DNA of 64,000 bases from Acutalibacteraceae bacterium (GTDB lineage Bacteria; Bacillota; Clostridia; Oscillospirales; Acutalibacteraceae), in the NCBI GenBank assembly GCA_045645885.1, contig JAZRJR010000073.1, positions 9,824-73,823 of the forward strand, given 5' to 3'. Shown piece after piece: positions 1 to 64,000 of this stretch. Position 1 is the stretch's first letter, and the number at the start of each line of letters is the position of its first letter. Position numbers and translations under genes: made by a program. The notes beneath the pieces were generated by a model. The model searched no databases and was not told the DNA's origin. It saw only the letters and a list, made by a program, of their open reading frames with translations.

Positions 1-699
1 ATCTGTTGTGCCGTCTTCGTTAACTGTCTTTGTTGCACTCTGAAGACCGTAAGGATTCACATATACGCTCTGCATACCTGATGCGAAAAACTGCTGGTAT
101 GTATACTCAGTAACTTCGTCAACAAGATAATCTTCAACAATGGGGTTTGCAAGATCTGCAACAAGCTTTCCGCCGGTGCAATCTACAATTTCAATGCCTA
201 CCTTTGCTGTCTTTATGTAATTGATAGGCTTTTCGGGATAGCAAAGCACACGGGCCATATCGTTGAATTCTTCACAAAGATAGTAAATATCATCGTCTTC
301 GCCGAGGTTTGTTGTGTCTGCTGAGGGAAGATAATCCTTGTCGATGTAGCTTATTCCGAAGGTTTCCCTGAACTTCTTTCTGAGGCTTTTGAAGAAGCTT
401 TCAATTCTGTATCGGATTTCATAGATTCTTTCGCGGATTGTTTCAAAGATACCTAAGCCGCCGTCCTGATCTTCATAATAGCCGTCGTCGAAGCCGTTGT
501 TGTAGCCGTCACCGAAGCCGTCGGTATAGCCGTCATTGTAGCCTGAATTATAACCGTCATCGTAGCCTTCATCATAGCTGCCTGTGGTTGTTTCAGGTGT
601 TTCTGTTGTACCCTCTGCACTTACAAATGTTACTGAGCCGAAAAGCATCATAAGCGCAAGAAGCAGAGCAGTAATTGTTCTGAAGTTTCTGTTTTTCAT
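1..699 (-). CDS. Secreted protein, N-terminal part only (gene runs off the left edge). Signal peptide, then a (D/N)-G-(Y/F) low-complexity repeat, then an amphipathic helix.
   Basis: Absent from the ORF track because no stop lies inside the window. The reverse strand is open in one frame from 705 down to 1. ATGs occur at 705 and 699. GGAG (rc of 709-712) lies 9 nt before the 699 ATG, so 699 is preferred. Translation: MKNRNFRTITALLLALMMLFGSVTFVSA/EGTTETPE..., a typical signal peptide. It starts only 20-26 nt downstream of the stop of the 726-1937 gene, so it is probably co-transcribed. Confidence 0.7.
   Translation of the reverse strand, partial: MKNRNFRTITALLLALMMLFGSVTFVSAEGTTETPETTTGSYDEGYDDGYNSGYNDGYTDGFGDGYNNGFDDGYYEDQDGGLGIFETIRERIYEIRYRIESFFKSLRKKFRETFGISYIDKDYLPSADTTNLGEDDDIYYLCEEFNDMARVLCYPEKPINYIKTAKVGIEIVDCTGGKLVADLANPIVEDYLVDEVTEYTYQQFFASGMQSVYVNPYGLQSATKTVNEDGTTD
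475..573 (-). repeat. Coding low-complexity repeat DEGYDDGYNSGYNDGYTDGFGDGYNNGFDDGYY, i.e. (D/N)(D/S/N)G(Y/F) repeated about 8 times.
   Basis: Read directly from the reverse translation of 475-573. Visible on the plus strand as repeated gccgtc / gtagcc units. Confidence 0.8.
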
Positions 700-725: not shown

Positions 726-1937
726 TCATTCATCCCAGTGCCAGGCACCGCACCTGCACTGTTCATTGATACCGAATAAATCCCAGATTCTGAAGAGCAT
801 TAGATAAATAACCCTTGCTACGCCCTTTTTATGACAGATGCAGCTGCAATAATCGCATGCATCATATTCAGCCATGTCATAGAATCTGTAGCTGTATAAG
901 CTGTAACCATCACCTAAAGAAAGCAGAATGTACGCTGATGAGTTTTCCTTGAAGGATGCCATATCTATATTAAGCTCAACGTCAACTCTGTAAACACCAA
1001 CCTTGTCAATTGTTACTGCATCAGTGAAAGCGGTAATATTACATTCCTTTGTGCGGATTTCAGTTTCACCGTTCATTTTTGTGATTTTATATGTAATGCT
1101 TGTAAGAACATTATTTTTTTCAACTGTGTAGTCTATGAGATCGATTCTTCTGTAAGGACAGTCGATCACTTCAACAGGCACTTCAACACTTGCATCACAG
1201 TAAACGAACTCAACCGATGAGCCCATTTCCTCAGGAAATTCTCCGTCAGTGTATACGCTTTCAGCAACAAGCGGTCTTCCGTCAAGACTGAGGGGACCGC
1301 ACCAGCCTGTATATTCCCCCTGTATAATCGGAGCTGTTTTTGTTGTACCGTCAGCATATTCAATTATCATTTCCTTGCCTTCGAAATAATCCCAGTAGTA
1401 CATTTTATGATGAAACGGTTCAAACTCACACGCCGGTCTGATGCTTTTTATATAGCTTTCAACAATTTTACATTCAACTTCGCCTTCAAAACGCTTATTA
1501 TTGCCTCTTTCAAAGCTGATTGTAAGCTCAACATTTACGGGTACAGTATCGTCACCGTTTTCAATTGCTTTTTTGCAGTCCTCATAGCTTACATTGAATT
1601 TGGGACCTGAATAGCTTGTAGTGCTCGGTATTTCGTCAAATAATCTGTCAAGCTCAACGGTTTTTCCGTTTGAAAAGCTTACAATAAGATTATCGTAGTA
1701 AAAGCCTGAAGCAGGCGTTGAGGCATGAGGGTCATTCTGAAGAACTATAATATCTTCGTTAAGAACATCATGAAGCTTTTCGATTTCCTTCATAGAAATC
1801 ATAACACCCTCATCAAATTTTACCGATTTGATTTCAGGGTTTATGAGGCTGAGAGCTGCAAAGCTCTGAAGTGGTACAATGCTCATAAGCATAAGTATTG
1901 CGAAGGTGGTTGCGAGGATTCTCCTCAATTTTTTCAT
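726..1937 (-). CDS. Secreted protein of unknown function with a Cys-rich amphipathic C-terminal tail.
   Basis: ORF track 726-1952. The first ATG is part of the RBS (ATGGAGGTAAAAACAATG), so the start is moved to the ATG at 1937 (MKKLRRILATTFAILMLMSIVPLQSFA/A, a signal peptide). C-terminus: CDYCSCICHKKGVARVIYLMLFRIWDLFGINEQCRCGAWHWDE. No family recognised by eye. Confidence 0.8.
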   Translation of the reverse strand: MKKLRRILATTFAILMLMSIVPLQSFAALSLINPEIKSVKFDEGVMISMKEIEKLHDVLNEDIIVLQNDPHASTPASGFYYDNLIVSFSNGKTVELDRLFDEIPSTTSYSGPKFNVSYEDCKKAIENGDDTVPVNVELTISFERGNNKRFEGEVECKIVESYIKSIRPACEFEPFHHKMYYWDYFEGKEMIIEYADGTTKTAPIIQGEYTGWCGPLSLDGRPLVAESVYTDGEFPEEMGSSVEFVYCDASVEVPVEVIDCPYRRIDLIDYTVEKNNVLTSITYKITKMNGETEIRTKECNITAFTDAVTIDKVGVYRVDVELNIDMASFKENSSAYILLSLGDGYSLYSYRFYDMAEYDACDYCSCICHKKGVARVIYLMLFRIWDLFGINEQCRCGAWHWDE

Positions 1938-2001
1938 TGTTTTTACCTCCATATTTCTTTTAAGGGATATTCGACACTTTGCACCTTTTTGTTGAATAAA
2001 T

Positions 2002-15174: not shown

Positions 15175-15930
15175 TTATCCGAAAATTATTTTCTTTTCAC
15201 CGTCAAGAACAAGTTCATATTTTTTCACATTAAAGGTGCTTTCGATTTTTCCGCTCTGAAGCACCTCTTCTTTTTTTCCGAAAGCAGCTACTCTGCCCTC
15301 ATCAAGAAGCAAAATACTGTCGGCTGTTTCAACTGCCTTGCCGAGATCGTGCATTACTACTATAAGGGTTTTCTTGTGCTTTTCTTTCAGCTCTTCAAGA
15401 AGAGAAATGAACTCCTTCTGAAACTGAATATCCATATAGGTTGTGGGCTCATCAAGAGCGATTATGCGTGTGTTCTGTGCAAGCACCATTGCAATATAAG
15501 CCTTCTGCTTTTCACCGCCTGAAAGCTCTGTAAGCTTCTTGTGACGCAATTCTTCTATGCCAACGTCAGCAATTGCTCTTTCAATCTGCTCTCTGTCCTT
15601 CTGAGAAAGGTTTTTGCCTAAATCCATATAAGGGGTTCTTCCCATAGCGACAAGTCTTTCTACAGTTATCGGCACAGAAGGCAGATACTGCGGCAGAAGA
15701 GAGATATAACCTGCTCTTTGTCTGTCTGTCATCATAGACAGGTTTTTATCTTCATAGTGAATCGTGCCTGTATATTTAGATTCACCTGTAAGGCACGACA
15801 GAAGGGTTGATTTACCGCTTCCGTTTTTGCCGATTACAGCCGTGATTGTGTGAGGCTTCACAGAAAGGTTGATTTCCTTAAGAATCTCTTTTTTGCCCTT
15901 AATTACGGAAAGATTTCGTATGTCAAGCAT
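15175..15930 (-). CDS. ABC transporter ATP-binding protein (FecE/BtuD-type).
   Basis: Walker A GKNGSGKST, signature LSGGEKQKA, Walker B IIALDEPT, H-loop VMHD. An 8-nt overlap with the upstream permease gene. Confidence 0.9.
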   Translation of the reverse strand: MLDIRNLSVIKGKKEILKEINLSVKPHTITAVIGKNGSGKSTLLSCLTGESKYTGTIHYEDKNLSMMTDRQRAGYISLLPQYLPSVPITVERLVAMGRTPYMDLGKNLSQKDREQIERAIADVGIEELRHKKLTELSGGEKQKAYIAMVLAQNTRIIALDEPTTYMDIQFQKEFISLLEELKEKHKKTLIVVMHDLGKAVETADSILLLDEGRVAAFGKKEEVLQSGKIESTFNVKKYELVLDGEKKIIFG

Positions 15931-16933
15931 TCTTCTCCCTCCTTAAAACAATATAGAGAAGGAACGGCGCACCCACAAAAGACATCACTACACCCACAGG
16001 TATTTCTGAGGGTGAAAAGACAGTTCTTCCCACAAGGTCTGCAACAAGAAGAAGAATTCCGCCAAGAGGCACCGAGGTCTTAAGCTGTTCTTCCGTGCTG
16101 CCGTCAGTTATCCTTCTCGCTATATGAGGCACCACAAGACCCACGAAGCCTAAAAGTCCCGCAAAGGATACGGCTGCTGCAGCTGAAAGTCCTCCGAGAG
16201 CAAGACAAACCACTCTGAGCAATTTTACATTTATACCGAGAGAATTGGCAATACTGTCGCCAAGACAAAGGGCGTCAATCTTTTTTGAAAGAAGAAGGGA
16301 TACAACAAAGCTGAAGGCAATCATCACTGTGGGCACAAGAAGTTCATTTTTCTCCACACCTGAAACTCCGCCCACAGAAAAGAAATTGTAATCTGTAAGA
16401 ATGTCAGGATTCAGGTAGGTAAGAAATGAAATTGCCGCATTGAGAACTGCCGTTATACCCACGCCGCAGAGAATTACGGTTGTTTTTGAAAACTGCCCTT
16501 TTGACGCCACAGAAAGAATCAGCATCGTTGTAATGAAAGCTCCCGTAAAAGCGGCAAAAGGCCGCAGATAAACTGCATAAGGCATAAAGAATAATGTCAG
16601 CGCCATAAAAAAGCCTGCACCTGCATTCACACCGATTATGTTAGGTGAAGCAAGCTCATTACCCGTTACGTTCTGAAGAAGCACACCCGAAACTGACAGG
16701 CCTGCACCTGCAACTATGGCTGCAAGAATTCTCGGAAGCCGAAGCTCAAGAAGAATGATTCTTGCCGTTTCAAATTCTTCTTTTCCGAGAAGACCGCCGA
16801 AAAACTGAGTGCTGCTCAGCTCTGCACTGCCCACACGCAAGGACAGAAGACCGCAAAAGAGCAAAATCAGCACAAGGCCGATTTTACCGTATGCTGATTT
16901 CAAATTTTGTTTTTTCAACATATTATCACTCAT
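15923..16933 (-). CDS. FecCD-family ABC permease (iron-complex / cobalamin type).
   Basis: 336 aa with about 9-10 TM helices and typical FecCD features (LRLPRILAAIVAGAGLSVSG...). An 8-nt overlap with each neighbouring gene. Confidence 0.9.
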   Translation of the reverse strand: MSDNMLKKQNLKSAYGKIGLVLILLFCGLLSLRVGSAELSSTQFFGGLLGKEEFETARIILLELRLPRILAAIVAGAGLSVSGVLLQNVTGNELASPNIIGVNAGAGFFMALTLFFMPYAVYLRPFAAFTGAFITTMLILSVASKGQFSKTTVILCGVGITAVLNAAISFLTYLNPDILTDYNFFSVGGVSGVEKNELLVPTVMIAFSFVVSLLLSKKIDALCLGDSIANSLGINVKLLRVVCLALGGLSAAAAVSFAGLLGFVGLVVPHIARRITDGSTEEQLKTSVPLGGILLLVADLVGRTVFSPSEIPVGVVMSFVGAPFLLYIVLRREKNA

Positions 16934-17867
16934 TGTTTAAAATTGTTGCTATATACTTATAGCTTTCAGCCCATCTGCTGCAGGGCTTATACTGAAACAG
17001 CTCTTTGGGAAGAAAATATACTCTCCCCTCTTTCACCGCTTCAAGATTTGCATATTCTTTTTCTTTGAAAAGGCTTTCCATATAGGCCTTGCCGTTGTCA
17101 TAATCGCCCATAACAGAAATGAAAATATACTGTGGTTTTTCTTTCAGAATCACCTCTGCGCTGAGGTTGTCAAGAAGTGCTTTTTCCTTGTCGGCAATAT
17201 TGACACAGCCTAAGTCTTCAAGAATTTTTGCAGCAAAATTATCTTCAGCCTTTTTTGCTTTGGCTGAGCTTGCTGATGAGCCTGAACGAACAAAAAGAAT
17301 TTTTGGGTTGTCTGTTCTTTTGCTTTCAGAGATTATCTTTTCAATTTCTGTTTTTGCGCTTTCGCCGTACTGCCCATAGTTTTCATTCTGAGCCGTAATT
17401 TTTGTAAGCACCTTAAGAATTGTAAGATAATCCTCAAAGGTATCCATTCGCATAAGTGCCACAGGAATTCCTGCTTTTCTGAGAAGTGATGCAGTATCCT
17501 TATGGGAAGCAATATCAGCCGAGCAGATTACAAAATCAGGCTCAAGAGAAAGCAGCTTTTCGTTGTCAATTGTTTTTCCTGCACCTGAATCAACAAGAGC
17601 CGCAGTTTCCGTTGCAAAGTCTCTTTCAACGCTCTCTCCTACGGTTGCATAAATTTCACCGCCTGCTTCAATCCAGCATTCAGCAAGTGAAGAAAACAGA
17701 ATTGCAGTTTTCTGCGGTTTTTCTGAAAGCTCAACAAGGTTTCCGTCACTGTCTGTGAAGGTCAGATAAGAGCCGTCACTCTGAGGCTTGTTGGTTTCTA
17801 TTGCACCTGAAACAAAAATTATGAGAACTACCAACACAACTGCAATAATAATACTTTTCTTATTCAT
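16926..17867 (-). CDS. ABC substrate-binding protein, BtuF/FecB class (PBP type 8), with an N-terminal membrane anchor.
   Basis: An N-terminal hydrophobic helix, then a two-lobe periplasmic-binding-protein-like sequence (...PDFVICSADIA..., ...PQYIFISVMGD...). Operon context with the FecCD permease and ATPase. Confidence 0.8.
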   Translation of the reverse strand: MNKKSIIIAVVLVVLIIFVSGAIETNKPQSDGSYLTFTDSDGNLVELSEKPQKTAILFSSLAECWIEAGGEIYATVGESVERDFATETAALVDSGAGKTIDNEKLLSLEPDFVICSADIASHKDTASLLRKAGIPVALMRMDTFEDYLTILKVLTKITAQNENYGQYGESAKTEIEKIISESKRTDNPKILFVRSGSSASSAKAKKAEDNFAAKILEDLGCVNIADKEKALLDNLSAEVILKEKPQYIFISVMGDYDNGKAYMESLFKEKEYANLEAVKEGRVYFLPKELFQYKPCSRWAESYKYIATILNNE

Positions 17868-18798
17868 TCTTCAGAATCTCTTCTTTTCTTAAAAGTATGT
17901 CATCAGAGAGAACAGCTTCTTTCACCTTATCGAAGCCTGCTCTTTCAATTGTATCTGCAAAACGTTCACCGGCTATGCCGTTTTCTTTATAAAAAAGTAT
18001 TGTCTTTTCAACAGCTGAAAGAATTTCTTCTTCTGTTTCAAAAATAAAGTCAAGAGGTGTACCTCTACCCACCTTTTTACCCCAACGTCCGCCAAGATAA
18101 AGTCTGTAGCCGCCTTTTTCAATATTCATTCCGTCAAGGTTGCAAGCACCGATACATCTTCCGCAGTTGTTGCATTTTTCTCTGTCAATTACAGGCAGAC
18201 CGTCTTTCATTGTAAGAGCCTTCATCGGACAAGTTTTTGCACAAAGTCCGCAGCCCTTACACTTTTCTTTGTTCACCTCAGGCTTGCGCTGACCGATAAT
18301 TCCAAGGTCATTGATATCAGGCTTAACACAGTTATTAGGACAACCGCCCACTGCAATTTTGAATTTATGCGGAAGCTTTACACTGTGATATTTCAGGTAA
18401 AATTCGTTATGAATTTTTTCTGAAAGTGAAAAGGTGTCAATAAGACCATACTGGCAAGTGGTACCCTTACATGAAACCACAGGACGCACCTTCGGACCTG
18501 TTCCGCCACATTCAATTCCTTTTGAATTGATAAAAGCAATGAAGTCATCCACATTGCTGTAGGGTATTCCCTGAACCTCAATTGTCATTCTTGATGTCAT
18601 TGCGAGCTTACCTGAGCCGAATCTGTCAGCGGCCTCAACAACGTTACGCACAAAATCTGTTGTTACCCGTCCGTTCACGGTGAGAACTCTGCAATTGAAT
18701 TTATCTTCTGTCGTTTTATCTCTAAGAAAACCAAGTCCTTTTATTCTTGCAACTTCAGCTGCAGGAACAGAACATTTCGGATAAATCGGTTTATTCAT
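17860..18798 (-). CDS. Sulfite/nitrite-reductase-like Fe-S protein with an inserted 2x[4Fe-4S] ferredoxin domain (AsrC/DsrA-like architecture).
   Basis: An NIR_SIR ferredoxin-like half-domain, the Cys clusters SCKGTTC and GGCPNNC (sirohaem-[4Fe-4S] type), then two CxxCxxCxxxCP-type motifs (CKGCGLCAKTCP and CNNCGRCIGACN). Confidence 0.75.
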   Translation of the reverse strand: MNKPIYPKCSVPAAEVARIKGLGFLRDKTTEDKFNCRVLTVNGRVTTDFVRNVVEAADRFGSGKLAMTSRMTIEVQGIPYSNVDDFIAFINSKGIECGGTGPKVRPVVSCKGTTCQYGLIDTFSLSEKIHNEFYLKYHSVKLPHKFKIAVGGCPNNCVKPDINDLGIIGQRKPEVNKEKCKGCGLCAKTCPMKALTMKDGLPVIDREKCNNCGRCIGACNLDGMNIEKGGYRLYLGGRWGKKVGRGTPLDFIFETEEEILSAVEKTILFYKENGIAGERFADTIERAGFDKVKEAVLSDDILLRKEEILKNE

Positions 18799-18941: not shown

Positions 18942-21900
18942 TTAACCGAAGATACCGAAAATCTTAGCGAAGAATTCCTTAATCTTCTTGATGATTCTCT
19001 GGAACCAGTTGAGGGTTTCTTCTGCCTCTTCTTCAGCTTCTTCGTGGTCTTCATCAGGACCTACAGTGTCATACCATACACCTGTCATCTGTTCCATAAC
19101 ACGTGCGATGCTACCATAGATACATGTTGAACCGTTTGCGATGTCGTTGAAGAGCTGCTTGAAGATTTCCTGAACAGTGATGATGTCGTTACGATAGAAC
19201 GCATCAACTGTTACTGCAAGACCGAGAGCCTGGAAGAGAGCTGCTACGATAATGTCGGGCATACCGTAAGATGCAGTTGTCTTGAAGAGCTGATCGATTG
19301 CATATCTTACAGACTGTTCTGAACCAGCCTTAAGATCGAATGCACCAACAATCCACTGTACAAGAGCTTCTCTGTTACCTGCATCACCGAACATATCAAG
19401 TAAGAATGTGAAGAGCCATGTAAGGGTGTTGCCCTTATCAGCCTGGATGTAGGTCTGAGTCTTCTTGTTGCCTTCAGCAATGTACTTGTCGTACTTGCCG
19501 TTTTCGTAATTCTTCACATAATCCTTAGGATCTGTGATAGCTGTCTTGAATGAACCAGCCTTTTCTGAACGAGCTGTTGCAACTTCCTTCTTACCTGTAC
19601 CTGTCTGAGCAAGTTCATAGAAGTCGATTTCAGGAATCTTGAAGTTGTACTTAGCGCCGAGGAGCTGGATGGGAATGTTGATGTTGTGGATAAGCTTAGC
19701 AACATCAAGACCTTCAAGAAGGTTACCAAGTCCGGGGATAATGCCTGAAACAGCATTGAGAATTCCGAATACGGGAGCTGCAAGGTTTCTTACGATGAGG
19801 TAGAAGCCTTCATTTGACAGGAAGTATCCAACGTTGGGAAGAACGCCGAGAAGTCTGTCAACGGGTTTAGCAAGGAGCCAATCTGCCCAGTTGCCGATCT
19901 TAGTAAGAACATAACCGAGGGTGTTTGCAGGATTTGACTTAACAGCATCTGCATACTGAGCCTGAGTCTTAACGTCCTTAGCTTCAAGACCGAATGCTTC
20001 AAGGAGAGGAATAATTGCGTAATCGTAACCGTTACCACCCTTGATATTAGCTACACATACGGGCATACCGTCGTCGCCCTTGATGATTGTACCGTTGTCG
20101 TTTCTGCTGGGAAGTACGCCGAGAGTCTTGCCTTCGCCGAGAAGGAGAAGTTCAAGTACGCAGTTAAGCGGGTTGAGGATTGATGCAAGGCCGTTTACAA
20201 AGCTTGTAACTGTGCCGTTTACACCCCAGTTGATGCCAGCTGCGCTTACGTCTGACCACTTCTTAGCAGCCTTAAGTCTCTTAGCGAATTCAGCGTTAGC
20301 ATTTGAATACTTAGCATATTCTGTTGCATAGCCCTGAACTGTAAGATCAAGACCGAGAGGTTTAACGTTACCCTTTTCGTCATAAACTACGAGGATTGCC
20401 TTGTCGCCTGTTGCAAGAGTTGAGATAGTACCAAGGATACCTTCAACGCTTTCACCGGCAAGGAGACCTGTGATTGTACCAACAAGGTTGGATACGAGAT
20501 CGTTGTTGAGCATACCGCCGAGGAGACCTGCGAGTGAGCCGCCGCCTACGCCTGCAGCCTTGAGAATGTCATTGATAAGGTTGTCAATGTTAGCTGCGAT
20601 TACGTCTGCGTTAGCTTCTGTAAGGAAGCCGTAGGTTCTGTAGTCGATACCCTGAAGAGTAATTGTTCTGTTCTGGATGGGAATGTATGAAACTTCGCCG
20701 CCGAGAAGAGTTGCAATTACGTCGAGGATCTTTGCGGGATCCTTGATGATGTCTTCGATGAGACCTTCGAAGTCGCCGAGGTCAAGACCGAGAGCACCCT
20801 TAAGTGCATTCCAGTTATCTTCTGTAAGGATTGTCTTAAGAAGAGCATAGAATGTGTATGCGTTGTCACCTGCAACGTTCTTATAACCTGTACCGTTATA
20901 GATGTCGTACTTAGTATCAAGAACTGAGCCCTTGAAGTCAATCTTGCCATCGCCGTTTGCATCTGCTGCTGCCATAGCTGCAAGCTCAGCAAAGTTGAGG
21001 TCAAGCTGGAGACCGAGAGGCTTGCCGTCAATTGCAATACCCTCAATAAGGTTACCGAGGAGATTTGCAAGAGCAGCACCGTCAATCTTGAGTGAAACAC
21101 CTGCGCTTACGCCGGGATGTTCCTGACCAAGGAATGTCTTGAGTACGGGATACTTGTCAGCATCTGCAGCACCGATGTTACCAAGGTCAATCTGGATAGC
21201 GATCGGGAAGATGGGATCTACTGCTGCGATGAGGTTATTTACGGGAGCGATGAGGTTTTCAACAAGAATACCTACGTTACCGTTAGCAATTGCATAGCAG
21301 AGGTTAGCAAGAATTCCGAGAACGCTGTTGATGGGCTGTTCAAGAATCTTATCAACCTGAGCGAAGAGCATGTCAAGGATAGGCTTGAGTGATGAGCCGT
21401 GGTTAGCAGCAACTGCTTCTTCATACTTAGCCTGAGTCATCGGTGTTGCACCGAGTGCTTCAAGAAGAGGAATGATAGCGTAGTTGTAGCCGTTACCGCC
21501 GCTTACCTTAACACCGTCAAGGATTGCGAGTGTATCACCTGTGAAGCCCTTTGTATCGAACTCAGCGTTAATCATACCGCCGTGGAGAAGGAGACCGAGG
21601 ATGCAATCAAGCGGGAGAAGCATATCACTGAGAAGTGCAATGAAGTCTGCCTTATCTGTGATGCCCCAAGCATATGCCTTAGCAACTCTTGTCTTTGTTC
21701 CGTCTTCGTTGGTCTTTTCTTCGCTGTGTGCCATCCATACTTCGTTCCATGTAATAGCACCATCTTTGTCCGTATCTTTAGCTTCTTCAATATAAGCTTT
21801 AAGCTTAGAACCGAACTTGGTGTTCTTGAATGCTGCGGGAGCAATGCTGAAGCTGTCACCGTTGTTCTTGAGATTTGAGAGCTGACCAACAAGGTCTTCA

Positions 21901-57209: not shown

Positions 57210-60200
57210 TTAACCGTAAAGGTGTGAGGGATCGCTACAGCACTTGAATTCACCGGTGAGCATCTTGATGATCTTGTGGAAGAATCTGAAGATTGCACCC
57301 CAGATGTTGTCACGGTGACAAGCACATCCGCAGCCTCTGATTGAAACTGTACCAACGATTTCGCAGTCAGCCTGAACGTCCTTAGTGATTTCAACCTTAT
57401 TGGCATTTGTAACTGTAATAACAATGTTGTATTTGCCCTTAGCTACTTCAAATGTTGTTACGCCCTGAGCGTTTGTATACTTGGTTGTTATGTAGTTACC
57501 GCCTGAGTAGATGTCAACCTTTGCGTTCTGAACAGCATTTCTGCCGTCTGTAACTGATACCTTGATGGTTGCATTCTTGCTCTGTTCGGTATTACCGCTG
57601 TCGTCGTCATCTGAACCTGAATCGCTCCATACAAGTTCACGTTCCTCTTCGTAGTCACAACGTATGCACTCAAAGATTACTGAACCCTTCTGAGTGGGAG
57701 TTGCAGGAACTCTAGTGTTTGCTTTTTCTACAAGCTTATGGCCGAGAGGACCACCCTGTTCATGCTGGAATGTGTAATCACAATACTCACACTTTTCAAG
57801 GATGCTTTCACCCTTTGTACATGTTGCGCCAACTGTAGCAGAGCTGTCAATCTTCATTGAGTGAGCAGTTGCATCGAACTGTGCATAATAGATATATGCA
57901 TTGTTGTTAGCGTCTTTCTTTTCAAGCTTCCATCCACTGAAGGTGTAATGATTGTTGTTATCATACTTCTTAGTGGGTGTTGTGCCTTCATAAAGATCTG
58001 CACTGATTTCAGCAAATGTCTTATCAAAATAGTAAGCAATTGTGTTATTTGCATCATAGCCGAAGATTACAGTATACTTACGGGCTGTTGATGTGTAGAT
58101 AGCAACAAGTTCAATGTTTGCTTCAACAACTGCATCAGCAGCAATCTTTTCTTCTGTGCCCTTGTATGCCCAGTGGCTGAATGCGTAGGTGTATTCATCA
58201 TCCTTATCCTTTGAAGGAGTGATTACTGAAATTTCTGCAATCTTTGTGCCTGCCTTAACAGTCTTTGTTGAGATTGCTGTTGTTGCTGTCTCATTAGCAT
58301 AATACTTAACAGTGTATTCAACTACGCCGCCAACTTCTTCTGTTTCACCGCAGAGTGTACAAGTCTTAACGCCGTTTACAGGTTCGCCCCATGTGTGATC
58401 GCCAAACTTGCCTTCAACTGTGTAGCTGTAATCACAGCCGCTACATGTGTAAGTCTTGATTTCCTTCTCCTTACAGGTTCCTGCAGTTGCTACTTTTTCT
58501 GAAATTGTGTGTTCAACAGCTGTAAAGTCTGCTGATGTTACAACATCGCTGTAAACTGCATTGAGTTCAACCTGCTTGCTCCAACCCTTGAAGGTGTAAT
58601 GGAAAGTGCCATCAGGAGCCTTTGTGGGAAGCTTATTAGCAGGACAAACTGCTGCTTCACCTGCTTCAACAGTTGTTTCGTAAACAACATCGCCTGTTGC
58701 ATTGAGGAACATAACTGTGTAGGTTCTTACTTTTTCTGCATATACGGGAACAAGTTCAAGATCTGAATTTACAAATACAGGAACTATTGATTCATTACTC
58801 TTTAATGCCCAACCGATAAATTCGTATGTCTTTTCCTTATCAGCTGCCTTTGCAGGACCGTTTACAGGAAGTATATCACCAAGAAGTGTGCCTGCAACAA
58901 TGTTGTATGCACGGGTGTAAACATTACCCTTTGCGTTGTAGTAAACGATTGAGTATGTTACGCCTTCAGATGTAGTAGCATCACAGCCTTCTCTCTGACA
59001 ATGTCTTACACCGTTTTCATCGGGATCGCCATAACTATGTGCAATCTTTGTGCCGGGAACAACTCTGTCATAGGTGTAACCACAATCACAAGTATATGTA
59101 TCAACTCTGTCTGCTTTACAAGTTGCTGCTTCCTTTACTGTTACTTTAAAAGTATGTGCTGTGTGAGTGAAGTTGGGAGTTGTATAAATATCACTGTAAA
59201 CAGCCCTGAGCTCTTCAGCCTTGTTCCATTCCTTGAAGGTGTAGTGATACTTTGTATCAGCTTCCTTGGTAATATTCTTAAACTCCTTATTGGCAGGCTG
59301 ACCTGCAGTTACTTCTTCTTCACCGATATATGCGCCTGCATTGTAAGCATATACAACTGTATACTTTCTTAATGAGCCTTCATAAAGAGGATAAAGCTTA
59401 AGGTCTGATTTTACAGCTGTGTTTTCAGCATCAAGCGCTGTTCTTGTATCTTCGCCTTCTGTGGGAGGTGCTACTGTTGACCAGCCGATGAAGGTGTATG
59501 TATACATCTTATCAGCAGCCTTTTCGGGAGCAGCAGGAAGAACTGTGCTGAGAACGGTATCTTTATAAACCTTGTAGCTATGTGTATAAACCTTGCCAAT
59601 TGCATTGAAATATGTGATTGTGTAGCTTACTAAGCCTATGTCTGCTACAGCTTCATCACAGTTTGCATTCTGACATTCAAAGAGTCCTGTTGTTTCGTTG
59701 AGAAGCCAATTATGTCCGTTTGCTGTGTTTTCGACTTCAGCTGTGTAGCCATAACCACATTCATCTTTACAACCATAATATACTACCTTGTTTTCAGTAC
59801 AGGTTGCTTCTGTTACAACACGTTCACTTCTGTTGTGCTCAACAGCGTCGAATACAGGTGTTGTGTAGATGTTGCTTTCCACAGCTCTGAGCTGTTCTGC
59901 CTTATCCCAGCCCTTGAATGTGTAATGATATACATTATCATAAGCCTTTGTGGGAGTTTCGAAACAAGGACGAGCAAGAGAACCTGCCTTCACAAGGAAG
60001 GTTTCGAGGATATTCTCAGTATCATAAGCATATGTTACTGCATAATATCTGTCTGCCTTTGTGTATTTTGCTTTAAGTTTAATATCTGAACCGTTAATTG
60101 TATATGTGTTGAATGCTTCGGCTTCTTCAGCGTCATTAGTGAAAATCCAACCTACGAATTCATAAGAATAATGAGTTGAAGCTGCCTTTGCAGGCCCCTT

Positions 60201-63200
60201 AGCAAGATCATAAGTCTCGCCGTTCTTGAGATAACCTGTCTTGCCGATTTCAGTTATGCCGTCTTCTGCATAATAAGTGATTGTATAATTGATCTGCTTT
60301 TCAGCATAAACAGCGTAGTAAATTGCATCACCCTTAACTTCGATGGGGAACTTAACTTCGTTGCCGTCTTTATCTGCCCAATGTGAGAAGGTGTAAGTGT
60401 AGGTTGCATCTGCTTCCTTTGCGGGAACAGTTACTGCATCAGCAGCGATTGATTCGCCAACAAATTTAGTAATTACCTTAGTATTAAGCTCAGTAGCCTC
60501 TTCACCGTTAACGAACGAAACTTTTGCTTCAACAGGAGGTACATAACCGTCTAACTTTTTATTTTCGATGTCACCGCATCTTGAACACTTGTAGTCCTGA
60601 TAGTATACGGTGATTGTTTCGCCTGTTTCTTCATCGGTTTCTTCTTTTGAATAAACTTCACCATCGATCTCATAAGCGTGGCCGAGTGCAGGAATTTCCT
60701 TAGCAACGGGAGCTTTCATTGGATCATATTCACCTTCACCGATCCAGCTTTCACAAACTGCACAAGTGAGCATTTCTGAACCCTTGTCTACACAAGTCGG
60801 CTCAACTATTGTCACATATTTACCTGCAACGTGACCGAGCGCAGGAATATATTCTGTTGTTTCCACATAACCGCAATAACGACAAGTCTTGCCCTTCTTA
60901 CCAATTTCCTGACAAAGAGGTTCAGAAATTATCTTTACGCGATAGAAATTATGGCCGTTTTCTGTGTCAACAGAAATCTCTTCAGTTACCCTTGCTGTTT
61001 CAAGACCGCAGACTGTACAGTCTCTGTGCTTTGAACCAACAGTCTTACAAGTGGCCTGCTGATCAATTACCCATTCATATTCATCTGTGTCTTTGCCGTC
61101 TTCACCTTTAACCATCGCATAAGTGTGTTTACCTGTTGCTTTAAGGTGTCCGAGATCATCAGCAGTGAGAGCTTCCCATGTGCCTTCTTCTTCATCTTCA
61201 GCAGGTTCAACAAACTTCTTAGCCTGAGCAAGGTCATCTGCAGAGCTTGTGGGATAAAGAACAAGTGTTAAGCCGCAGTTGTTGTCGCAGACATATGTTC
61301 TGTAACCGTCATTTACACAGTCAGGTGCTGTGTCAACATAGTTTACTGTAAAGCTGTGACCCTTGGCAGCAATAGTTGTTACAGCTTTTCTGTCACCGCA
61401 GAGTGTACAGATGTCATATTTTGAACCGTCGGCCTCACAAGTTGCAGCAATAGTATATTGTCTATAGCTATGCTTACCCTTGATTTCGAATACCTTTGAT
61501 GTCTTGTTGCCGTGCACATCAATAGCTGTTACTGTGTGAGTACCTTCTGCTTTACATACATACTCGCCGTTAACAAGAGTAACCTCTTCACCGTCGATGT
61601 AGGCCTTTGTGCCTTCAATATCATCAGTTATATTTATAGTAGCTGTACTACAGAACTCACTGCCGTAACCATCACCTGTAACTGTAATTGAAGGAGCCTT
61701 TGTACCATAGCTGATTGTACCTGAGCTGAGGTAACTTACGTTTACTTCACCAAAGCCTTCACGGTCTGAAAGTCTGATGTAAATGATATACTCCTTGCCA
61801 TCTTCAAGATTAAGATTTGACACAATACCTGTTGCATTCGCATTGTAGTGTGCAAGTATTTCATCAACAGCTCTGTCGATTTCAGCCTTGAGAACCCTAT
61901 CGTTACGCATAAGAGCGCTGTATTCAACAAAATCAAGGTCATATTCATCAAGCACTGCCGCAAAAACATCATTCTTTGCTGCTTCGTAGTTGTAAATTTC
62001 TGTCCAACCTGAAATTACTGTAGTAAGATCTTTGATTTCTTCAGTTGAAATGAAATATTCCATTTTGCCAACGCCACGACTGAGCTTAGCTAAGGGGTTA
62101 GGCATTGTGCGTGTACCGACATCGTTTGCATTTGCAATGAGGAAAGTATTTGCAGAAACATAAGTAATCTCGTTGTAATCGATCTTACCGAAATCGCTGC
62201 TGTCCCATAACTTGTTACCAACATAGAGCTTACCTATAGGAGCGTCATTATCTTCAACGATGGGAATCTCTACATTGTAATCAATCTTGTTACACTCATC
62301 ATCCATACACTTATAGTTAGCGAAACCGGGAACGGTGCATGTAGGTTCTGCAACAATTTCATAAACTACTTTTTGATGCTCTTCTTCTGTATATGTAGGC
62401 TTAAGAGAAATCACACCATTAACAAGAAGAGTTTCATTGATTATATCAACTTCTGCACCAGTAGCGATATGAGTCCATTTCTCGTTGAGCTTATAGTGAT
62501 GCTCATCTGTTGCGGGTTTATATGCTTTAGATATAAATGAACCATTGTAATCTGCAATATTTCCACCGAAGGGAATCTTAACTGTTTTTATTATGTCTGT
62601 GCAGTCTTCATTATAGAAGTTTACTGTAAACTCCTGAGCCTTTCCTTCAAAAACAGGATAGAAGTAAAGGTTTTTGCCCGGCATTCTGTCGCCACGAACA
62701 AAAATCACTTCATTTTTTGCAATGTATTCTGCCGGCGCAGAAAGTTCAATCTGAGCAATAGCTGCCTGTTTTTCAGGCTCTGTTAATTCACTGTTACTGT
62801 TTATTTCTTCTATTTTTGTTACATAACCATATTCAGGATTACTTAAAAGATCCGCCGGTACTATAATAATATTACCATCAGCGTTAAGTTGACGACCGAA
62901 TTCGTCACACAGCACCCAATGCTTAAACACCCACTGATATCCTATTTCAGGAACTTCATAGCTAACAGGTTCAGTGAATACAGGTTGCTGAATCTTTGCA
63001 TTGTATCTGTATACAGCTGTTGAATGAACATCTTTGTTGTCTTTTAACCATGTAACTGTATATGTCTGATAAGATCTTATGTAGGTTGCTGTGTAGGTTG
63101 CATCACCATGACAAAACTCTGAAACATCAGGTGACCATGATCTGAAACTATAACTAAACTCTACATCATCATCTTTAACAGGATTTTCAGGAATAACTAT

Positions 63201-64000
63201 TTTATCACCATAATGATATGTATTTTTTGAAATTATTTCCTGTTCACCGTCTTCATTTTTTATGTCGTTAAGGAATGTAATTGTGTAATCCTTATAAACA
63301 GTTTCGAACTGTGCTGTAAGATAGGTATCACCGCTGAACACATCTTCACCCGGAACAACGATATTACCGTTGCTGTCTTGCCAGCCCTTGAAGTTATATG
63401 TACCAACCTCATCTTCAGCTCTTTCAGGAAGAGCATTTGTGGTTGCGCCGTCCTCATTTTGCACAAGGTTTTCATAAGCAGGGATTTTTTCATCTACAAA
63501 CAGACCGTTTTCTTTACCGTCAAGCTTATAGATGAGTGTTCCGTCATAGTTATAGTAATAAATATCGGCATAATCTTTCTTTTCATAGATTGCCTTATAT
63601 TTTGCGTCACCGACAGCAATACCGATAACTGCAGGAGACCATTCCTTGAAGGTATAAAGTGAATCATCCGTAACAATTGTCTTGGGAATATCATATACCG
63701 TGCTATCACCTTCAACCGTATCACCAACTGTGGGAGCAGTAACCGATGCACCGTGACTGTAAAGAGTTGAATCAGCTTTGATGACTTTTCCGTCTATATC
63801 GAGGAACTCGATAGTGTATTCAGCGAGTATGGGGTTACCGTAAACTGCATAGAGCTGTGTGTCGCCCTCAATCATAATATCTTTAAGCTGATAAACGTTA
63901 CCCTTCTGAGGATCACCGATTCTCCAACCCTGAAGGAAGTATCTGTAACCACCATAAACATAGTTGTTAAGGATTTCAGGATCCACGGGAGCTTCGCCCC
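57210..64000 (-). CDS. Very large secreted or surface protein, C-terminal 2,260+ aa only. Layout: Listeria-Bacteroides (Flg_new-like) beta repeats interleaved with CxxC-containing motifs, a prealbumin/CarboxypepD_reg-like domain, then a Cys-rich amphipathic tail.
   Basis: The ORF track gives 57210-63986, but the frame stays open to the window edge (GEAPVDPEIL...), so the N-terminus lies outside the window. It has many units of the form Y[TS][IV].[FY]......G......P...P.K....Y.[FY].F.[GEHS]W, and many motifs such as ATCEADGSKYDICTLCGD and ATCKTVGSKHRDCTVCGLE. Near the C-terminus come SDSGSDDDDSG, then ATIKVSVTDGRNAVQNAKVDIYSGG...GKYNIVITV, then GCGCACHRDNIWGAIFRFFHKIIKMLTGEFKCCSDPSHLYG. Confidence 0.88.
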   Translation of the reverse strand, partial: GEAPVDPEILNNYVYGGYRYFLQGWRIGDPQKGNVYQLKDIMIEGDTQLYAVYGNPILAEYTIEFLDIDGKVIKADSTLYSHGASVTAPTVGDTVEGDSTVYDIPKTIVTDDSLYTFKEWSPAVIGIAVGDAKYKAIYEKKDYADIYYYNYDGTLIYKLDGKENGLFVDEKIPAYENLVQNEDGATTNALPERAEDEVGTYNFKGWQDSNGNIVVPGEDVFSGDTYLTAQFETVYKDYTITFLNDIKNEDGEQEIISKNTYHYGDKIVIPENPVKDDDVEFSYSFRSWSPDVSEFCHGDATYTATYIRSYQTYTVTWLKDNKDVHSTAVYRYNAKIQQPVFTEPVSYEVPEIGYQWVFKHWVLCDEFGRQLNADGNIIIVPADLLSNPEYGYVTKIEEINSNSELTEPEKQAAIAQIELSAPAEYIAKNEVIFVRGDRMPGKNLYFYPVFEGKAQEFTVNFYNEDCTDIIKTVKIPFGGNIADYNGSFISKAYKPATDEHHYKLNEKWTHIATGAEVDIINETLLVNGVISLKPTYTEEEHQKVVYEIVAEPTCTVPGFANYKCMDDECNKIDYNVEIPIVEDNDAPIGKLYVGNKLWDSSDFGKIDYNEITYVSANTFLIANANDVGTRTMPNPLAKLSRGVGKMEYFISTEEIKDLTTVISGWTEIYNYEAAKNDVFAAVLDEYDLDFVEYSALMRNDRVLKAEIDRAVDEILAHYNANATGIVSNLNLEDGKEYIIYIRLSDREGFGEVNVSYLSSGTISYGTKAPSITVTGDGYGSEFCSTATINITDDIEGTKAYIDGEEVTLVNGEYVCKAEGTHTVTAIDVHGNKTSKVFEIKGKHSYRQYTIAATCEADGSKYDICTLCGDRKAVTTIAAKGHSFTVNYVDTAPDCVNDGYRTYVCDNNCGLTLVLYPTSSADDLAQAKKFVEPAEDEEEGTWEALTADDLGHLKATGKHTYAMVKGEDGKDTDEYEWVIDQQATCKTVGSKHRDCTVCGLETARVTEEISVDTENGHNFYRVKIISEPLCQEIGKKGKTCRYCGYVETTEYIPALGHVAGKYVTIVEPTCVDKGSEMLTCAVCESWIGEGEYDPMKAPVAKEIPALGHAYEIDGEVYSKEETDEETGETITVYYQDYKCSRCGDIENKKLDGYVPPVEAKVSFVNGEEATELNTKVITKFVGESIAADAVTVPAKEADATYTYTFSHWADKDGNEVKFPIEVKGDAIYYAVYAEKQINYTITYYAEDGITEIGKTGYLKNGETYDLAKGPAKAASTHYSYEFVGWIFTNDAEEAEAFNTYTINGSDIKLKAKYTKADRYYAVTYAYDTENILETFLVKAGSLARPCFETPTKAYDNVYHYTFKGWDKAEQLRAVESNIYTTPVFDAVEHNRSERVVTEATCTENKVVYYGCKDECGYGYTAEVENTANGHNWLLNETTGLFECQNANCDEAVADIGLVSYTITYFNAIGKVYTHSYKVYKDTVLSTVLPAAPEKAADKMYTYTFIGWSTVAPPTEGEDTRTALDAENTAVKSDLKLYPLYEGSLRKYTVVYAYNAGAYIGEEEVTAGQPANKEFKNITKEADTKYHYTFKEWNKAEELRAVYSDIYTTPNFTHTAHTFKVTVKEAATCKADRVDTYTCDCGYTYDRVVPGTKIAHSYGDPDENGVRHCQREGCDATTSEGVTYSIVYYNAKGNVYTRAYNIVAGTLLGDILPVNGPAKAADKEKTYEFIGWALKSNESIVPVFVNSDLELVPVYAEKVRTYTVMFLNATGDVVYETTVEAGEAAVCPANKLPTKAPDGTFHYTFKGWSKQVELNAVYSDVVTSADFTAVEHTISEKVATAGTCKEKEIKTYTCSGCDYSYTVEGKFGDHTWGEPVNGVKTCTLCGETEEVGGVVEYTVKYYANETATTAISTKTVKAGTKIAEISVITPSKDKDDEYTYAFSHWAYKGTEEKIAADAVVEANIELVAIYTSTARKYTVIFGYDANNTIAYYFDKTFAEISADLYEGTTPTKKYDNNNHYTFSGWKLEKKDANNNAYIYYAQFDATAHSMKIDSSATVGATCTKGESILEKCEYCDYTFQHEQGGPLGHKLVEKANTRVPATPTQKGSVIFECIRCDYEEERELVWSDSGSDDDDSGNTEQSKNATIKVSVTDGRNAVQNAKVDIYSGGNYITTKYTNAQGVTTFEVAKGKYNIVITVTNANKVEITKDVQADCEIVGTVSIRGCGCACHRDNIWGAIFRFFHKIIKMLTGEFKCCSDPSHLYG
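57850..60600 (-). repeat. Four tandem coding units of about 650-680 nt each: two Flg_new-like repeats plus one double Cys motif.
   Basis: The block Y[HT]YTF[KS][GE]W.K...L.AV.S..[YV]T...F....H......... [AG]TC......... Y.C..C.Y.Y recurs. Its Y.YTF.GW part is centred near 59920, 59238, 58593 and 57940. Confidence 0.75.

Follow-up and report, generated by a model that had tools for sequence, protein, structure and literature searches.

A 64,000-nucleotide stretch of DNA from an Acutalibacteraceae bacterium (assembly GCA_045645885.1, contig JAZRJR010000073.1, positions 9,824 to 73,823; here called the window) encodes secreted proteins with a basic, aromatic, amphipathic helix, among them a giant of 12,636 amino acids (aa). 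In two of them, of 408 and 2,858 aa, the helix lies in a tail at the very C-terminus and is bracketed by clusters of cysteine and histidine. This Cys-bracketed tail is strictly C-terminal, modular, present in multiple copies per genome, lineage-restricted and enriched on secreted proteins, and it represents a large family that has no entry in any database searched. The giant ends in a Cys-less tail, which was named WFQ. The tails are most likely C-terminal surface-retention tags with a predicted architecture unlike that of any described sorting signal. They had been pointed out, together with a fourth, internal stretch, in an earlier note made from the letters of the window, which took all four for forms of one candidate sorting or anchoring tag. 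The four genes behind the quoted peptides are all located on the minus strand, and translation of this strand reproduced the peptides exactly; the internal one spans 346-450, where 352-450 had been given.

The 408-aa protein (726-1952, minus strand; all coordinates are those of the window) is a secreted protein of unknown function that matches no Pfam or NCBIfam family. Its tail (729-848, minus strand) scored 58.8 bits with the hidden Markov model (HMM) of the family and consists of CSCICH (831-848), the helix VARVIYLMLFRIWDLF (774-821) and CRCGAWH (738-758), followed by WDE and the stop codon. The window encodes only the C-terminal 2,262 aa of the 2,858-aa protein, including Flg_new repeats (57210-63998, minus strand), and the N-terminus lies beyond it. 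These 2,262 residues are 100% identical to residues 597-2858 of a 2,858-aa NCBI protein (P0026), whose N-terminus is the signal peptide MKKNLKKSLSLFLAVLMLMSCWVWVAPQKA, in agreement with the claim of the note that all of the proteins are secreted. Exact-sequence look-ups of P0026 and the 408-aa protein, made to extend the analysis past the window, returned no record. The tail of the 2,858-aa protein (57213-57332, minus strand) scored 58.6 bits with the family HMM and comprises CGCACH (57315-57332), the helix NIWGAIFRFFHKIIKML (57258-57308) and CCSDPSH (57222-57242), followed by LYG and the stop codon.

Both tails follow one layout of about 38-42 aa, in which C-x-C-x-C-H is followed by [KR]-x-G and by a 16-residue helix with many F, I, L and W and one basic stripe that closes with K-[LI]-F. 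After the helix two types could be distinguished, type A with C-x-C-G-x-x-H-[YW]-stop and type B with C-C-x-[DN]-P-...-Y-stop. Type A (consensus CxCxCHKxGIxxFFFKIxLFFQKLFGxNKxCxCGxxHY-stop) is found on many different proteins and has the 408-aa protein as a divergent member. Type B (consensus CxCxCHRDNxWGxIFRFFHKIIKxxTGEFKCCxDPxxxY-stop) is found chiefly on orthologs of the 2,858-aa protein, whose tail scored 85 bits with the type-B HMM, and accounted for 35 of 154 tails, which were extracted mostly from matches to representative proteins. By alignment and HMM score the tails of the 408-aa and the 2,858-aa protein are one truly homologous module: they align without gaps, with C-x-C-x-C-H, 24 residues, a C and then an H in identical columns, and the type-A HMM recognised the tail of the 2,858-aa protein with 15.5 bits (i-Evalue 9e-7), the type-B HMM that of the 408-aa protein with 9.5 bits (i-Evalue 5.6e-5).

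Among homologs of the 408-aa protein down to 30% identity, C, C, C, H, K, G, F, C, C, G, A, W and H of the tail were invariant. The Cys/His ligands are likewise invariant across the 154 tails, with seven Cys/His positions invariant or near-invariant, and the K after CH, the G, K-[LI]-F and the N are highly conserved non-ligand positions. A 1,459-aa LRR_5 protein encoded near the ortholog of the 408-aa gene (L124:13184-17563) carries a type-A tail in which the first cluster reads C-D-H-M-C-H; since His stands for the second Cys here, the ligand set tolerates a Cys-to-His exchange, as metal sites do.

A search of 1.84 billion representative proteins with a 47-position profile of the tail (HMMER) gave 982 clusters at E ≤ 1e-3, and the 150 best of these without exception have a profile match that ends 0-6 residues from the C-terminus, with host proteins of 44 to 2,981 aa in length. 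A word-index search of 5.8 billion proteins with the alignment of the 47-aa tail gave no candidates, the query being too short for the index. In addition, the species-representative genomes of GTDB were searched with the DNA pattern CxCxCHKxG-(21 codons, N63)-CxCGxxH, which encodes no stop codon. At least 120 stretches matched, a lower bound, and 123 matches were analysed; about 0.004 matches are expected by chance, as estimated from the information content of the pattern. All of the 123 matches listed were in frame with a nearby stop, which followed the final His after one codon in 104 (mostly HY, some HW or HF), directly in 18 and after four codons in one. With its pattern free of stops, this search is an unbiased test of C-terminality. 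The profile matches, the genome matches and the WFQ contigs described below support the earlier note in that the tails are real, conserved and strictly C-terminal, and they place them on many unrelated proteins. A few Cys tails end very short ORFs (open reading frames) of 35-49 aa, and one ends a 139-aa ORF whose N-terminal part is unlike that of a secreted protein (L084, JALEQX010000073.1, from 438; L010, from 1257; and P0120); these may be gene remnants or mis-assemblies.

The source genomes that carry a label are all gut metagenome-assembled genomes (MAGs) of Acutalibacteraceae, Ca. Fimenecus, Oscillospiraceae, Ruminococcaceae, Clostridia or Eubacteriales, obtained from human, goat, sheep, cattle, roe deer and chicken, and at least 10 tail loci are present in a single MAG (JAZLAJ01). 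Under one crude rule for signal peptides, 63 of 69 complete tail ORFs were signal-peptide-like, versus 75 of the 279 remaining ORFs with a length of 250 aa or more from the same loci (Fisher p 1.6e-23); by the same rule 94 of 114 representatives qualified. The lipobox pattern occurred in one of the 69 tail ORFs versus eight of the 75 other signal-peptide-like ORFs. The tails are strongly enriched on signal-peptide proteins, multi-copy within genomes and restricted to one lineage, in support of the interpretation given in the note. Pfam domains on the tail-bearing proteins scanned were BspA-type leucine-rich repeats (LRR_5), Flg_new, CHAP, Metallophos (metallophosphatase) and DUF6273, and secreted proteins encoded next to tail genes had fn3, LRR_5 and CAP; in the source annotations all tail-bearing proteins are named 'hypothetical protein'. 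All-against-all clustering of 1,093 ORFs from 120 loci, sampled as 8-kb blocks only, revealed no gene that recurs beside the tail genes, which fits an autonomous anchor; the dedicated sorting enzyme that had been considered is not represented by a conserved neighbouring gene at these loci. Cys repeats of about 33 aa (ATCTxxGxxxxxCxxCG), all unannotated, are numerous in the 2,858-aa protein and in most hosts of Cys tails (e.g. L034:3322-5574, L085:639-2516 and L091:3407-5455); their second half resembles the terminal CxCGxxHY of the tail, and a D-x-D-x-D-G-x-C-D-x-C-G motif lies upstream of many type-A tails.

The tails match no known family. With five consensus-type Cys tails and the WFQ tail as queries, scans of Pfam-A and NCBIfam 20.0 gave no NCBIfam match at E ≤ 10, and in the same NCBIfam scan the tail of protein P0188, which served as positive control, matched LPXTG_anchor and Rumino_NPXTG. 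The only echoes in the Pfam and NCBIfam scans were PSM_alpha_3 (E 0.74) and the C-terminal lipopolysaccharide (LPS)-binding domain of CAP18 (E 0.22), both non-significant. Nothing fell on the tails when the proteins of the window and ten host proteins were scanned, Dockerin_1 (PF00404) matched none of the Cys or WFQ tails, and no description of the Cys-bracketed module was found in a literature search.

The giant is encoded by the ORF at 18942-56852 (minus strand). Behind an N-terminal signal peptide it consists of repeats of an unannotated, helix-rich unit, and a Pfam scan of the whole protein gave no family above cutoff. The repeat unit is also present in single or few copies in proteins of 830-910 aa, and P0184-P0189 align at many positions of the giant; this repeat family is itself undescribed. 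The WFQ tail is formed by the last 23 residues of the giant (aa 12614-12636; 18945-19013, minus strand), LNWFQRIIKKIKEFFAKIFGIFG, a basic aromatic amphipathic helix that ends at the stop codon, and is directly preceded by GPDEDHEEAEEEAEET (19014-19061, minus strand), an acidic linker as read from the sequence. Its layout is an acidic linker and then [ST]-L-N-W-F-Q-[RK]-h-I-x-x-I-K-x-F-F-x-K-[IL]-F-x-x-x-stop, without Cys. Ten orthologous C-terminal fragments with 39-99% identity keep [ST]LNWFQ[RK]hIxxIKxFFxK[IL]F[GS]IF[GK]-stop behind an acidic linker, and a DNA pattern for this tail matched eight metagenome contigs, with the tail at the very C-terminus in all of them. Since the proteins of three contigs (L127, L128 and L132) resemble the giant only in the last 21 aa, the WFQ tail is a modular C-terminal element. 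The protein of L127 (SDBV01026654.1) has a signal peptide, the Pfam domains Bact_surface_Ig-like, He_PIG and Big_13, an acidic linker and the WFQ tail, and that of L132 (SDBV01031793.1) has a signal peptide and similar repeats; acidic stretches precede the tail in the orthologs and in L127 and L132. Given these metagenome contigs, the WFQ tail may extend beyond the Oscillospirales.

What stands in place of the WFQ tail in the small relatives of the giant supports a role in anchoring. At the equivalent position P0184 ends in a transmembrane (TM) helix and a basic cluster, and the C-termini of P0186-P0188 are made up of (V)PTGD or NVNTGD followed by a TM helix and RKKK. The end of P0188 (NVNTGD, TM helix, RKKK) scored 20.5 bits with TIGR01167 (cutoff 15.9) and 20.3 bits with Gram_pos_anchor (cutoff 20), and 22.1 bits with Rumino_NPXTG, below the cutoff of 23.5. 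This positional replacement by a sortase signal or TM anchor is the best indirect evidence for the tail of the giant as a putative anchoring device. The earlier note had regarded the tail as the only obvious candidate and had stated that there is no lipobox, neither of which is quite exact: read from M14, the N-terminus of the giant (MKVGKKALSCLLAIIMIVSSC, …IIMIVSSC; signal peptide at 56724-56813, minus strand) matches the Gram-positive lipobox regular expression G+LPPv2 with IVSSC, so that in the strict sense an anchor other than the tail is also conceivable. The hydrophobic stretch of the signal peptide runs on to VLGA, a possible site for signal peptidase I, and the distant homologs P0186 and P0187 appear, by eye, to lack a Cys at the corresponding position. 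A C-terminal TM helix of the giant (aa 12530-12553) was considered and dropped, as the protein has more than 30 hydrophobic helices of this kind in its interior.

The helices were analysed by an 18-residue hydrophobic-moment scan, in which the flagged stretch ranked first in each of the four proteins. For the tail of the giant this was rank 1 of 12,619 windows (hydrophobic moment, muH, 0.76), and the internal stretch had the top moment of the 233 aa visible in the window. The amphipathic helix at the core of the original observation is thus an objective feature. Family-wide, muH amounted to 0.53 (type A), 0.63 (type B) and 0.70 (WFQ), with a net charge of the helix from +2.7 to +4.9 and about 28% aromatic residues across the three. 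Between the Cys clusters of 153 tails the longest run free of K, R, D, E, Q, N and H was at most 11 residues and mostly 5-8; therefore, the helix cannot span a bilayer and is not a TM segment. The WFQ tail has five to six Lys/Arg in 20 residues. In the column statistics, as we read them, the polar residues line up in a single narrow basic stripe (i, i+4, i+7, i+11), and the hydrophobic positions of the alignment interchange freely between F, I, L, W, Y and V. The 20 residues upstream of type-A tails contain 24% D/E. AlphaFold2 (AF2), run on an alignment of 58 tails, predicted a single 16-residue helix at residues 17-32 of the 47-aa tail with a predicted local distance difference test score (pLDDT) of 85-89 (mean of the model 77); the Cys/His clusters are modelled as non-helical coil at opposite ends of the helix and are not brought together. 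A Foldseek search of the PDB with this model and an HMM search of PDB sequences found no analogue.

The nearest functional precedent is found in the low-molecular-weight penicillin-binding proteins PBP5 (DacA), PBP6 and PBP4 of E. coli, which like the tails combine Sec export and a C-terminal amphipathic helix with the absence of a TM segment and, as is presumed for the tails, of cleavage. In PBP5 the last ~18 residues form a C-terminal amphipathic helix, a peripheral tether to the outer face of the cytoplasmic membrane (PMC2909392). The tail proteins show the same combination of Sec signal peptide and C-terminal amphipathic helix without TM segment, the helix being predicted. Unlike PBP5, the tails are unrelated to it in sequence, modular on many proteins per genome and far richer in Phe and Trp; the main family is bracketed by an invariant Cys3His and Cys2His and has a fixed HY end, and membrane binding is here something that we only infer. 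CTERM sorting signals, including four with an invariant Cys, are composed of a signature motif, a hydrophobic segment of TM length and an Arg cluster (10.1101/2023.06.07.544157). The Cys tails resemble them as short C-terminal domains that have an invariant Cys within the motif and occur in multiple copies on many unrelated secreted proteins of one lineage. Unlike LPXTG, PEP-CTERM, GlyGly-CTERM and MYXO-CTERM signals, however, the tails have no TM-length segment but a 16-residue helix with a net charge of about +3. Instead of a basic cluster, 122 of the 123 genome matches listed end in H or in H and one aromatic residue (Y, W or F), and type B ends in ...DPxxxY(G/K); the module is conserved to the precise C-terminus and has no known cognate protease. 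Structurally, the comparison with the PEP-CTERM, GlyGly-CTERM and MYXO-CTERM systems that the earlier note drew therefore fails, with neither a TM-length segment nor a terminal Arg cluster and with Cys tails that stop at a conserved HY. Moreover, the tails are found in monoderm Clostridia, for which no Cys-type sorting signal has been described. The sortase signals of Ruminococcus-type Clostridia (NPXTG/LPXTG_anchor) occupy the same position in the small relatives of the giant, but the tail of the giant has no xPxTG, no TM helix and no homology to them and seems to replace the anchor rather than to vary it. Dockerins are likewise short, modular, C-terminal tags that attach secreted Oscillospirales proteins to the surface, with Ca2+ as the metal. 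In contrast to them, the tail has no Dockerin_1 match, no Ca-binding loops and no known cohesin-like partner, is half their size and is dominated by a single hydrophobic helix.

To the reading that the tails are retained, autonomous, in-plane membrane tethers, whose Cys3His and Cys2His bind metal to cap, clamp or pair the helix, we assign an even chance. What we infer for this reading is that the tail associates with the membrane, is kept on the mature protein and binds metal. The tail would stay on the mature protein after export and cleavage of the signal peptide. The helix would then lie flat in the outer leaflet of the cytoplasmic membrane with its aromatic face buried, and the Lys/Arg stripe would touch anionic lipid headgroups or lipoteichoic acid, so that the protein would be tethered to the cell as E. 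coli PBP5 is by its C-terminal amphipathic helix. The Cys3His and Cys2His clusters at the ends of the helix probably bind a metal such as Zn2+, which could serve as a cap or clamp for the helix or join two tails to a pair, and in the anoxic gut extracellular thiols should stay reduced.

Several points weigh against such a tether. Every host organism found is an uncultured MAG. A peripheral helix of 16 residues would be a weak tether for a 1.4-MDa protein and may require oligomerisation or a second anchor, and the N-terminus of the giant also fits the lipobox expression. The seven invariant ligands and the exact HY-stop exceed what a simple lipid-binding helix needs and suggest specific recognition, be it by way of a metal site, an enzyme or a partner. 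The two Cys/His clusters stay apart in the AF2 model, and the model of the last 220 aa of the giant is uninformative (pLDDT 43). Finally, the neighbourhood sample is confined to 8-kb blocks, and sortases and exosortases are usually unlinked to their substrates, so the lack of a recurrent neighbour gene is also compatible with a dispersed enzyme.

Whether the note was right to see one shared tag is a question apart from function. By profile comparison, the stretches of the window are to be read as members of no fewer than two distinct C-terminal families plus an N-proximal helix, all alike in the style of the helix: the Cys-bracketed tails proved homologous, as had been assumed, and the tail of the giant belongs to a separate, smaller, Cys-less family that Cys-tail HMMs do not score. 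Their best result with the tail of the giant was -6.8 bits, nothing significant was obtained with the internal stretch, and a helix-only HMM matched neither. The alleged internal copy of the tail (IFETIRERIYEIRYRIESFFKSLRKKFRETFGISY, 346-450, minus strand, in the truncated protein at 1-699) is not a C-terminal tail but the helix of a third family; it is conserved and N-proximal in the 591-aa ortholog L123:10784-12559, the C-terminus of which bears no tail. These results, together with the differences between WFQ and Cys tails in length, flanks and host range, speak for the alternative that there is no single tag and that four amphipathic helices arose independently and are alike by convergence, the tail of the giant and the internal stretch being unrelated to the Cys module; we place this alternative a little short of an even chance. 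Against it, hhalign compared the WFQ profile with the type-A helix-only profile with a score of 20.6 (probability 84.5%), pairing FQrliKKIKeFFaKIFgI (WFQ) with IakifyKIllFFwKLFGi (type A), and only 1 of 400 and 2 of 400 column-permuted controls reached this score (z ~4-5). Since permutation also destroys helical periodicity, common descent and convergence are not separable in this way and the score attests a likeness of kind only. The best local alignment of the giant to the Cys-tail HMMs, out of 12,636 residues, lands exactly on its tail, and WFQ and Cys tails share FFxK[IL]FG at the end of the helix in the same register (F-F-x-K-[IL]-F-G); the similarity between the classes is borderline at the level of sequence. 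Convergence is further disfavoured by the encoding of all three forms within 64 kb of one genome and by a secreted protein family of about 290 aa that has the ending of the giant's tail (...FFHNLIAKIFGIFG) followed by C-P-x-C-x-x-H. The genes of this family (L123:8256-9119 and L124:8628-9503) adjoin the orthologs of the 408-aa gene in related genomes, and right after the signal peptide, thus at the N-terminal end, the proteins read …FFHNLIAKIFGIFGADCPICDNH, the ending of the giant's tail plus a CxxCxxH cluster. The link of their helix to the giant's tail is weak (6.3 bits, i-Evalue 4e-4).

With seven invariant ligands and an exact HY-stop that hint at specific recognition, explanations in which an enzyme or a partner reads the tail were kept beside the autonomous tether. 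It is unlikely that the tail is a sorting signal that a dedicated, unlinked membrane enzyme removes or lipidates at Cys (by S-acylation or a thioether), which would leave the protein anchored covalently to lipid or wall in the manner that has been proposed for the Cys-containing MYXO-CTERM class. The extreme C-terminal position, the many unrelated secreted hosts, the 10 or more copies in one genome and the narrow taxonomy are as in known signals, the invariant Cys adjoin a membrane-seeking helix, and known Cys-bearing signals are thought to be modified at Cys before cleavage (10.1101/2023.06.07.544157). However, the TM-length hydrophobic segment and the terminal Arg cluster are missing, the whole 38 aa are conserved to the exact HY-stop where known signals have a variable basic tail, no NCBIfam sorting-domain model matched at E ≤ 10, no gene recurred as neighbour in the 120 loci, and the same helix motif occurs without any Cys in the WFQ tail and in the N-proximal helices. 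We also regard it as improbable that the tail is a metal-dependent, dockerin-like docking module that inserts into a surface receptor, scaffold or wall polymer, with the face of the helix buried in the partner. It does resemble dockerins in that it is modular, C-terminal and present in many copies and marks enzymes and adhesin-like proteins, the invariant ligands and the conserved K after CH, G, K-[LI]-F and N suggest a specific fold or interface, and extracellular metal/Cys modules are common in the hosts, which are full of Cys-rich mini-repeats and D-x-D-G-x-C-D-x-C-G motifs. Yet the tail has no known partner and neither Dockerin_1 nor another Pfam family matched it, the hydrophobic positions swap freely as in lipid-binding helices, and the relatives of the giant have wall or membrane anchors, not docking domains, at the position of the tail. 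Very improbable, in our view, is an effector in place of an anchor, that is, a cationic segment like an antimicrobial peptide that would attack membranes of other cells or of the host on contact or after release of the tail. The composition is like that of cationic amphipathic peptides, and PSM_alpha_3 and the CAP18 domain were the echoes in the scans, but these matches are far below threshold, the tail is present on dozens of unrelated housekeeping-type surface proteins per genome, it takes the place of anchors in relatives, and no processing site or immunity gene was seen in the 120 loci. As a more far-reaching proposal, possible though doubtful, the Cys3His-helix-Cys2His tail would define a new system by which gut Oscillospirales sort or dock proteins and in which a dedicated machine or receptor reads the tail, with WFQ as a degenerate or parallel branch. 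Candidates for this machine would be an acyltransferase or protease acting on Cys or a metal-dependent surface receptor, and dozens of adhesins and enzymes per cell, megadalton proteins included, would be displayed by it. Two further ideas were dropped: a c-type heme motif (the spacing CX3CH is contained in C-x-C-x-C-H, but the middle Cys is itself invariant and there is no other support) and a RiPP-like (ribosomally synthesised and post-translationally modified peptide) or SCIFF-type precursor, as the hosts are large signal-peptide proteins present by the dozen per genome.

The giant gene is followed immediately downstream by four genes of the same strand (15175-18798, minus strand). One encodes a Cys-rich protein of 312 aa with CxxCxxCxxxC motifs, and the other three resemble an ABC importer with substrate-binding protein, permease and ATPase (Walker A GKNGSGKST); these four assignments were read from the sequence only.

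The guts of humans and livestock abound in Acutalibacteraceae and their relatives, which are almost entirely uncultured, and it is poorly understood how monoderm gut Clostridia hold large adhesins and enzymes on the surface without SLH (S-layer homology), LPXTG or lipobox signals. A 38-residue tag on about 1,000 protein clusters gives a sequence handle for the prediction of the surface proteome, covering BspA-type LRR proteins, proteins with Listeria-Bacteroides repeats and cell-wall hydrolases, and merits a curated family model; these proteins are now all 'hypothetical'. It also raises the tractable biochemical question of the role of seven invariant Cys/His around an extracellular amphipathic helix. 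The Firmicutes would have a new sorting system if an enzyme or receptor is involved; an autonomous tail would serve as a compact and transplantable tag for surface display in anaerobes.

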